30,372 nucleotides of DNA, taken from IMG/VR virus record IMGVR_UViG_3300027365_000045, positions 1 through 30,372 of that record. One strand, 5' to 3'. Positions 25,469 to 26,397 of this stretch are shown here, in pieces. A model generated the notes under the pieces. It did no database searches, was not told the origin of the DNA, and saw only the letters and a program-made list of their open reading frames with translations. Numbering within the stretch: the stretch's first letter is position 1; the number at the start of each line of letters is the position of its first letter. The DNA comes from a virus. Lineage: Duplodnaviria; Caudoviricetes. The position numbers and the translations under genes were made by a program.

Positions 25469-25494
25469 AAAAAAAGACCCTCACGAGGAGGGTC
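25469..25494 (-). terminator. intrinsic terminator closing the ncRNA unit
   Basis: GACCCUC-CUCGU-GAGGGUC followed by U7. Confidence 0.88.
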
Positions 25495-25546: not shown

Positions 25547-25649
25547 TGAGTGCTTTGCTGGGATGGATTTGAACCACCGACCCAAACCCGATAAGCAATG
25601 GCAATATCGAGTCATACTCTAACCATCTGAGCTACCAACAAAACACTCA
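25547..25649 (-). ncRNA. tRNA-like RNA (core 25555-25641) with enlarged anticodon arm, inside a 15-bp stem
   Basis: U8A9, D arm GCUC-AGAUGGUUA-GAGU, T arm GGUGG-UUCAAAU-CCAUC; 9-bp arm with 11-nt loop in the anticodon position; no CCA. Confidence 0.75.
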
Positions 25650-25868
25650 AAACTACCGGCTGTCTGCTTCCAGCCCGTCAAACCGAATCGCCACGATGGT
25701 TAATCGCCATTCCGGGGAAAGTTGTCAAACCCTGGCTATCTCATTCACCTCTCTCTCAAGCGGTAAAAGGTAGGCAAACCCGCTTGTTCAATTACCTGAA
25801 GTGCTCCGCATGGGAGTCATGCATCACAGCTACTTCAGAGGCCCGCATGAGGTACGCGGTGCTAAAAC

Positions 25869-25943
25869 TGGAGCATCTGGTGGGAATCGAACCCACATTT
25901 TCTGGGTGGAAGCCAGACGTAATTTCCAAACTACGACAGATGC
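25869..25943 (-). tRNA. tRNA-Gly (anticodon UCC)
   Basis: 75 nt: GCAUCUG/CAGAUGC acceptor, UCUGG-CUUCCAC-CCAGA anticodon arm, GUGGG-UUCGAUU-CCCAC T arm, discriminator U, encoded CCA. Confidence 0.95.
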
Positions 25944-25951
25944 AAATCAAC

Positions 25952-26040
25952 CACAACGGAAAGAGCACTGGTCTACCTCTATCGATTAACGGGCTTGTGG
26001 GGCAGTATCGCCGATTCACCCAATGCTCTTACCTGTTGTG
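25952..26040 (-). promoter_or_regulatory. lambda late-leader-type RNase III processing hairpin
   Basis: Arms CACAACAGGUAAGAGCAUUG and CAGUGCUCUUUCCGUUGUG, recalled as the same arms found after tR' in lambda. Confidence 0.75.
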
Positions 26041-26079
26041 TGCCCTGACTTATTAATCACATCTCAGGGCCGCAATGCG

Positions 26080-26218
26080 CCAGATTCGGTTACATGGAAC
26101 TGGAATACCATGAAAGCGCGTTGGCCGTTAGGCTGCTGCTTTAAACTCTGTATCGTTTGCATTTATCTTTGTGGTTCGTTCCTTAATCACCGCAAAGTCG
26201 CTCGCGAAAACTATCTGG
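26080..26218 (-). ncRNA. tmRNA mRNA-like-domain mimic encoding tag ANDTEFKAAA
   Basis: AUAAAU GCA AAC GAU ACA GAG UUU AAA GCA GCA GCC UAA (26160-26128) inside a domain closed by CCAGAU/AUCUGG. Confidence 0.7.
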
Positions 26219-26222
26219 TTTC

Positions 26223-26251
26223 AATATAGCCGCATCCTTGCGACTGTGCAA
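26223..26251 (-). promoter_or_regulatory. sigma70 promoter of the ncRNA unit
   Basis: TTGCAC-17 nt-TATATT with an A-rich upstream region. Confidence 0.75.
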
Positions 26252-26256
26252 CTTAT

Positions 26257-26397
26257 TTATTTACCTTTCTTCTTTTTCTTCTTCCCAGCCTTGCTCATGG
26301 CTATCGCAATGGCCTGCTCCTGAGACTTGCCATGATGCATTTCCATGGCGATATTCTCAGAGATAACCTTGTCCGACTTTCCGCGTTTGAGTGGCAT
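26257..26397 (-). CDS. small basic conserved phage protein (46 aa)
   Basis: MPLKRGKSDKVISENIAMEMHHGKSQEQAIAIAMSKAGKKKKKKGK; TAATG overlap with the upstream gene, SD GGAGG. Missed by the ORF track. Confidence 0.85.
   Translation of the reverse strand: MPLKRGKSDKVISENIAMEMHHGKSQEQAIAIAMSKAGKKKKKKGK

Follow-up and report, generated by a model that had tools for sequence, protein, structure and literature searches.

The 30,372-nt stretch of viral DNA analyzed here (the window) was found to be part of a tailed phage, having genes for terminase, portal, head morphogenesis, a Hoc-like protein, holin, endolysin and a major capsid protein that is 93.5% identical to the capsid of Serratia phage Eta. 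The phage is a Serratia-phage-Eta-like siphophage, of whose genome the window covers about 71%. The Hoc-like gene is separated from the lysis genes by a non-coding minus-strand unit of ~740 nt, which runs from a sigma70-like promoter to an intrinsic terminator and contains a tag element, a long-stem hairpin, a tRNA-Gly and a tRNA-shaped RNA (Table 1). Judging from the promoter, the RNA is predicted to start at about 26216–26218, and the long-stem hairpin is probably co-transcribed with the tag element. In Serratia phage Eta the same promoter and the following hairpin are kept, with another, unannotated module filling the slot of the element (L334:810-890), and the tag element is thus an exchangeable cassette. 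Among the homologs described below, a promoter abutting the arm of the element was seen in 37 of 144 distinct upstream contexts.

Some further features of this region could be noted, all on the minus strand. A 46-codon ORF with a lysine-rich end (26257–26397) overlaps the stop codon of the Hoc-like gene and ends just before the promoter, the spacer of which holds an inverted repeat (26229–26245) that is kept in Eta and is a possible operator, or terminator for the upstream gene. Loci of HK620, P1, Eta and prophages show the stem of the long-stem hairpin again at one or two places around the element, where it sometimes encloses a T-arm-like loop. Between the tRNA-Gly and the tRNA-shaped RNA (25640–25868) are ~230 nt of ORF-poor hairpins without an Rfam match, including a 56-nt stretch that is 93% identical in Eta.

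Table 1. Features of the non-coding unit and the tag element, listed in the direction of the minus strand (positions are those of the window)
Feature	Position	Strand	Remarks
Sigma70-like promoter	26223..26251	-	-35 TTGCAC (26251-26246), 17 nt, -10 TATATT (26228-26223); 9/12 consensus match
Antisense box A	26205..26214	-	Antisense to nt 98-106 of E. coli tmRNA, at tag codons 3-6; duplex prediction
Antisense box B	26196..26201	-	Antisense to nt 86-91 of tmRNA, at the resume codon and its context
Antisense box C	26189..26195	-	Antisense to nt 74-80 of tmRNA, which form the 3' strand of pseudoknot 1
Replacement strand predicted to rebuild host pseudoknot 1 by pairing with tmRNA nt 55-62, and 10-nt linker with AUA context	26161..26178	-	
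10-codon tag frame ANDTEFKAAA-stop	26128..26160	-	No start codon
Helix-5-like hairpin with last codons, stop codon in loop	26113..26142	-	Covariation and fold
H-type pseudoknot (PK2-like)	26080..26112	-	Stems 99% and 100% paired
Second H-type pseudoknot (PK3-like)	26042..26079	-	Stem 1 99% paired; stem 2 seen by eye in the alignment, not counted
Long-stem hairpin module	25952..26040	-	Conserved stem, variable interior; fold z -2.7; stem common to Eta, HK620 and P1 loci
tRNA-Gly(UCC)	25869..25943	-	ARAGORN; Rfam 58 bits
tRNA-shaped RNA	25554..25641	-	Enlarged long arm replaces anticodon loop; 38.9 bits with the Rfam tRNA model but missed by ARAGORN; fold z -3.0
Intrinsic terminator	25476..25494	-	Consensus scan; marks the end of the ~740-nt unit before the lysis genes; putative function

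As read from its sequence, the tag element is an RNA gene of ~175 nt (26216–26042) with a tmRNA-type tag frame and without a tRNA-like domain. A preliminary description, made from this DNA alone, had placed it at 26080–26218, which proved too short as the RNA continues to about 26042 through a further pseudoknot, and had missed the complementarity of the 5′ end of the element to host tmRNA. Much of what it had read from the letters was nonetheless found as described, including the promoter ahead of the element, a hairpin before AUAAAU (present, although imperfect), the GCA..UAA frame reading ANDTEFKAAA, the stop codon in the GCC/GGC loop and an in-frame UGA 21 codons upstream of the GCA.

Homologs were found in hundreds of unrelated enterobacterial phage records, where they are unannotated. 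With BLAST, matches were obtained in 404 of 50,697 phage records (at E<=1), in 140 of 5,426 E. coli genomes and in 497 of 72,556 plasmid records. Named carriers were HK620, having its copy between pR′ and tQ, a P1 record, SJ46, Det7, EspM4VN, phiEa2809, Sf18, wV8, KP8, 7-11, ESP2949-1, Snitter, PYps23T, Fifi44, KLPPOU148, Mulvp2 and pIS4-A, and in those named carrier records that were examined no RNA was annotated at the element. Many carriers place it among tRNA genes. Since the element is unannotated also in model phages (P1, HK620, the Felix-O1-like wV8, the N4-like KP8 and Det7), it is directly testable in E. coli K-12. It was rare in bacterial species representatives, those found being enterobacteria, and among 57 genome matches the four true members were all in ANDENY hosts, with no members in hosts having other tags. 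The tag pattern matched 3 of 401 Gammaproteobacteria genomes, these being the seed and two resembling ordinary tmRNAs; at order level it matched 1 of 401 genomes, and at family level the RNA model matched 2 of 151.

For the counts given below, members were defined by the two downstream structure motifs, which gave 431 loci with 191 distinct copies; two further copies, both reading ten codons, fell outside the spacing rule and were left out of the 191. Chance pattern matches made up 24 of 81 distinct loci in one collection and 4 of 96 in another, with 2 more being incomplete. A pattern false positive (L498) was dropped from the resume-context counts, and a second weak tmRNA-like match in HK620 was rejected, having no tag frame.

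The tag frame comprised ten codons in 189 of the 191 distinct copies, with 11 codons in one (L574, a read-through) and 13 in another (L616, having a 3-codon in-frame insertion), and it was closed by TAA in 187 copies, TAG in 2 and TGA in 2. Single-base codon differences among the 191 copies were synonymous versus non-synonymous at 45/50 in the frame, compared with 19/102 and 21/78 in the two other frames. Because many loci had been collected using patterns that fix parts of the frame, this count was repeated on loci from ORF-blind patterns. In that subset, the frame had ten codons in 108 of 108 distinct copies, which together with the 404 matching phage records makes the element more than a chance occurrence, and the corresponding ratios were 25/28 in frame versus 10/59 and 12/48, with the locating rule still fixing the first two bases of codons 1–3. 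The UA at -5/-4 of the resume context was found in 133 of 137 copies. These counts indicate that the start-less 10-codon frame is under codon-level selection. The encoded peptides comprised 36 distinct ten-residue tags, variable in the middle. An aromatic residue at position 6, earlier taken as an SspB-type feature, was not conserved, with F or Y in 20 of the 36 distinct peptides; the proposed AA ending held for 100 of 191 tags, whereas 89 ended in VA.

When analyzed alone, the 144-nt region folded no better than shuffles (z -0.01), and its structure therefore had to come from homologs, using an alignment of 45 of these. The hairpin after the tag frame and its loop-to-downstream pairing were 99–100% paired with many double changes, seen in 5 of 9 pairs of this PK2-like pseudoknot, and stem 1 of the PK3-like pseudoknot was 99% paired with double changes in 2 of 6 pairs. 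The outer stem of helix 5 was 81% paired, all 5 of its 5 pairs having double changes, and its inner stem was 66% paired. The paired fraction and covariation score were reached by none of 500 shuffles, with slid controls falling to 35–43%. Of the helices that had been proposed to close the region, CCAGAU/AUCUGG was paired in only 61% of cells and CGCG/CGCG was 35–71% paired in the 45 homologs. AUCUGG instead pairs as a pseudoknot with the loop of the side hairpin CAUGG/CCAUG (100% paired, with 21 and 13 double changes) and not with CCAGAU. At the 5′ end, helices within the phage RNA were 72% paired without any double change, and a pseudoknot-1-like fold can be drawn there. The pairing results thus gave a layout along the RNA of an antisense arm, the resume context with its resume codon, the 10-codon tag, helix 5 and two pseudoknots, with the covarying pseudoknots implying ongoing selection. 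The parts kept in the phage RNA include helix 5, the PK2-like pseudoknot and the resume context. In tmRNA, according to PMC8012679, PK2 and helix 5 anchor the molecule at the mRNA entry channel while bases upstream of the resume codon contact SmpB, the latter being positions -6 to +1 as given in PMC3985003. Conservation of frame, codons and structure all support a phage tmRNA-like tag template that lacks a tRNA-like domain, as originally suggested.

With one-piece tmRNA (SsrA, RF00023), the phage RNA shares the start-less 10-codon frame from GCA AAC GA, the AUA context, the stop codon in the loop of helix 5, downstream pseudoknots and small hydrophobic residues at the C-terminus of the tag. 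It differs in that acceptor stem, T arm and CCA are absent, an antisense arm directed at host tmRNA stands in for pseudoknot 1, helix 5 is followed by two pseudoknots and a free 3′ end, and the Rfam score is sub-threshold. The likeness in helix 5 and pseudoknots is one of structural analogy, with a putative homology to E. coli PK2/PK3 at 13.5 bits. It was also clear, in agreement with the preliminary description, that a tRNA-like domain was absent, with ARAGORN giving the tRNA-Gly only and RF00023 giving no match in the window and none over cut-off in four complete phage records.

The coding piece of two-piece tmRNA (RF04321, RF01849, RF01850) is similar in being a separate tag-template RNA that joins a tRNA-like partner by pairing, and the permuted tmRNAs of environmental phages have the UAAAU context and the tag style in common with the phage RNA. 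The coding piece, however, has a 5′ acceptor strand and an acceptor piece of its own; both are missing from the phage RNA, for which docking on an intact host template is predicted. Directly upstream of the element are the promoter and the small ORF and not an acceptor piece, while the permuted genes that were compared do show the 5′ strand. The gathering threshold of the two-piece families was not reached, with a tmRNA_permuted match of 26.7 bits versus 47 as the only tmRNA signal from Rfam and ARAGORN in the window, and at most 34.7 bits in loci of the family. Two-piece tmRNA genes occur in many environmental viral contigs (L338–L457), ANDERFLMAA and ANDNSYRMVA being examples of their varied tags, and tmRNAs of this kind are a possible origin of the family.

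Another phage half-tmRNA proposed to interfere with host trans-translation is that of mycobacteriophage DS6A, but this is the opposite half, with the tRNA-like domain kept and the template absent, and the phage tmRNAs listed in the same two sources are complete or tRNA-like-domain only, none being template-only (PMC4131195, PMC11915505). Neither an Rfam family nor a published description of the element was found in the open literature, subscription journals being outside the scope, although the supplements of PMC11915505 or catalogues of candidate RNAs could hold it unnamed. The element is apparently a widespread and hitherto undescribed phage RNA.

Prophage anti-sRNA sponges, such as AgvB, are phage RNAs of late-leader or tRNA regions that pair with host non-coding RNA; they are not known to carry a substitute reading frame. 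No match to Rfam families of such sponges was found in the window. Conserved complementarity to a host non-coding RNA was predicted, as in sponges, among arms that are related and partly pattern-selected. Using E. coli K-12 ssrA as target, the 5′ arm is by duplex prediction complementary to tmRNA nt 74–106, thereby spanning pseudoknot 1, the resume codon and codons 1–6. The first 30 nt of the arm of the window paired with tmRNA nt 73–107 at a predicted -30.7 kcal/mol, compared with -11.3 for its own template, and that energy was reached by 8 of 1000 shuffled arms and by 16 of 1000 shuffled tmRNAs. When 64 of the 67 distinct arms were scored, the best tmRNA site covered nt 88–91 for 61 of them and host tmRNA was preferred over the own template in 62, with these arms being related and many having been collected or anchored by arm-like patterns; only 32 of the 64 individually beat 95% of their shuffles. 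Predicted net binding after opening costs was about -8 to -9 kcal/mol, as computed without pseudoknots.

Across 100 distinct upstream sequences that had been collected without regard to the arm, the core positions of box A were 97–100% invariant. Variants in box B were mostly A>G or C>U, keeping G-U pairs, but the anchoring was partly circular and transitions are also commoner mutations; a few pair-breaking variants were seen as well. Box C pairs imperfectly inside the free phage RNA, in an internal helix having an unpaired C-A column and no double changes. A nearly invariant arm, combined with variable own codons 4–6 and internal helices without double changes, is as expected for a fixed outside partner. 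The replacement strand paired with tmRNA nt 55–62 in cofold predictions at p 0.66–0.73, and in the 123 long-form copies the pairing to G62..G55 was kept in 123, 98, 122, 120, 123, 120, 0 and 111, with one position thus always mismatched. A conserved A of this strand has a variable partner inside the phage RNA, and the strand may resemble host pseudoknot 1 by descent. A cofold pairing of the 3′ part of the phage RNA with tmRNA nt 4–65 was rejected, not being conserved by eye and looking artefactual. Box A was absent in L249 and L265, the whole arm was missing in a damaged copy (L393), and box C together with the replacement strand was lacking in 68 of the 191 copies.

The Salmonella phages Det7, 7-11 and SJ46 keep the E. 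coli-type box A. With a Salmonella tag of ANDETYALAA, as given together with the H. influenzae tag ANDEQYALAA in Table 1 of PMC12493166, this costs a pair and argues against strict covariation. In a jumbo-phage variant (L451, L537, L541, L548), changes in box A allow 11 contiguous pairs with ANDEQY-type tmRNAs of two genomes, which may not be the tmRNA of its host. The L537 arm was predicted to bind at -22.8 and -26.0 on ANDEQY-type tmRNAs versus -17.9 on that of E. coli, a preference reciprocal to that of the arm of the window (-22.7 on ANDEQY-type versus -30.7 on E. coli). This divergent member (L537:3971-4173) is located between tRNA genes in an AT-rich jumbo phage (contigs of 254–262 kb), the host of which was given neither by protein searches nor by the accessible part of bioRxiv 2020.07.06.186817.

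Template exchange would most simply explain why an antisense arm is joined to a start-less frame under selection: the phage RNA would pair with host tmRNA, cover the host template and offer one of its own, to be read via the tRNA-like domain of the host together with SmpB. Based on the sequence comparisons and pairing models, we assign this reading a probability of about 0.6. The RNA would be transcribed from the adjacent promoter together with the tRNA cassette, with its free arm loosely folded back on its own linker. Boxes A and B would then bind the single-stranded host template and box C would open host pseudoknot 1, whereupon the freed phage strand could pair with tmRNA nt 55–62, so that the phage GCA would follow 10 nt downstream, compared with 11 in the host. 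After transfer of alanine and translocation, the ribosome would resume on the phage codon and end at the phage stop codon. One point against this scheme is that host helix 5 and PK2 would be intact in the hybrid and may compete for the ribosome site.

Of the four roles offered in the preliminary description (decoy, alternative resume template, partner for cleaved host tmRNA or piece of a split tmRNA), the antisense arm favors an alternative resume template or a partner for host tmRNA. That arm would also suit an inhibitor that binds host tmRNA and blocks tagging, with its own frame read rarely or never, and such a role is plausible given the in vitro block of trans-translation by antisense oligonucleotides to tmRNA (PMC7038980). 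Both the resume codon and codons 1–6 lie under the arm, and a phage tmRNA having the tRNA-like domain only was reported to inhibit tmRNA (PMC4131195). We nonetheless regard this as unlikely, since it leaves the frame unexplained; an inhibitor needs none, yet length, frame, synonymous bias, three stop codons, the in-frame insertion of L616 and the resume context are all kept. Considerably more doubtful is an untranslated RNA that either soaks up a nuclease or factor recognizing the tmRNA template, or protects host tmRNA from cleavage as a shield or splint. Such a decoy should copy the host sequence, whereas the bases of codons 4–8 have diverged within a conserved frame, and in the literature examined no defence system was shown to cut tmRNA at this site. 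The location of the element among phage tRNA genes in many hosts, the flanking of a 5-nt host loop by boxes A and B, and the predicted tmRNA-binding defence systems and RtcB repair of tmRNA described in PMC11090510 would agree with that role.

The coding piece of a split phage tmRNA, with the acceptor piece elsewhere in the phage, was suggested by tmRNA_permuted being the best Rfam match and by the two-piece tmRNAs of environmental phages, which share the UAAAU context and similar tags and reach 20–24 bits on the family model; the window, moreover, holds only ~71% of the genome. Considering that a two-piece coding piece carries the 5′ acceptor strand, while the phage RNA has none and starts at a promoter, that no smpB was found in the window, and that no tmRNA over cut-off was found in four of four complete phage records, for which the proposal is largely refuted, we find it very improbable. 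Least credible of all is an ordinary small ORF or a decaying tmRNA remnant. Although an in-frame GUG is found 10 codons upstream in the window and an AUG overlaps the resume codon in another frame in 148 of 191 copies, no in-frame ATG, GTG or TTG precedes the tag before an upstream stop codon in 166 of 191, which speaks against the peptide being the end of a conventionally initiated ORF, and the frame of the overlapping AUG, which 43 copies lack, has anything between 5 and 33 codons. For a remnant, the ongoing selection on the covarying pseudoknots would not be expected.

Returning to template exchange, the tags are still degron-like in ending with AA or VA, so that the likely gain for the phage is not protein stabilization but control of rescue. 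We conjecture that the RNA could maintain rescue where the host template has been disabled by a defence nuclease or by tRNA loss, or that the hand-off to proteases or RNase R could be changed. In this regard, tmRNA-binding defence proteins have been predicted and RtcB repair of tmRNA described (PMC11090510), and recruitment of RNase R depends on the last two codons according to PMC4176180. The full scenario, with many unrelated enterobacterial phages reprogramming the rescue RNA in trans by strand exchange, forming a host–phage hybrid pseudoknot 1 and having stalled proteins finished on a third RNA so as to counter defences or tRNA loss, we hold as tentative, at somewhat less than even odds. 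If true, translation would be redirected in a new manner, by a template-only RNA that attaches through antisense pairing, phage–host conflict at ribosome rescue would gain a new layer, and the tmRNA template would be deliverable in trans, as a compact tool for changing the tag on stalled proteins.

As for transcription, contigs of four RNA runs from one study covered the element at a flat depth of about 10, a depth that cannot show transcription, and in the homolog L007 none of the raw reads of four RNA runs, from strains probably without the prophage, fell on the element (0, 5 off-target, 0 and 0 reads). One further member (L230:630-1027) has the tag ANDNYALAAA, which is the closest to the host tag, and is located just upstream of two short genes that by eye are antitoxin-toxin-like.
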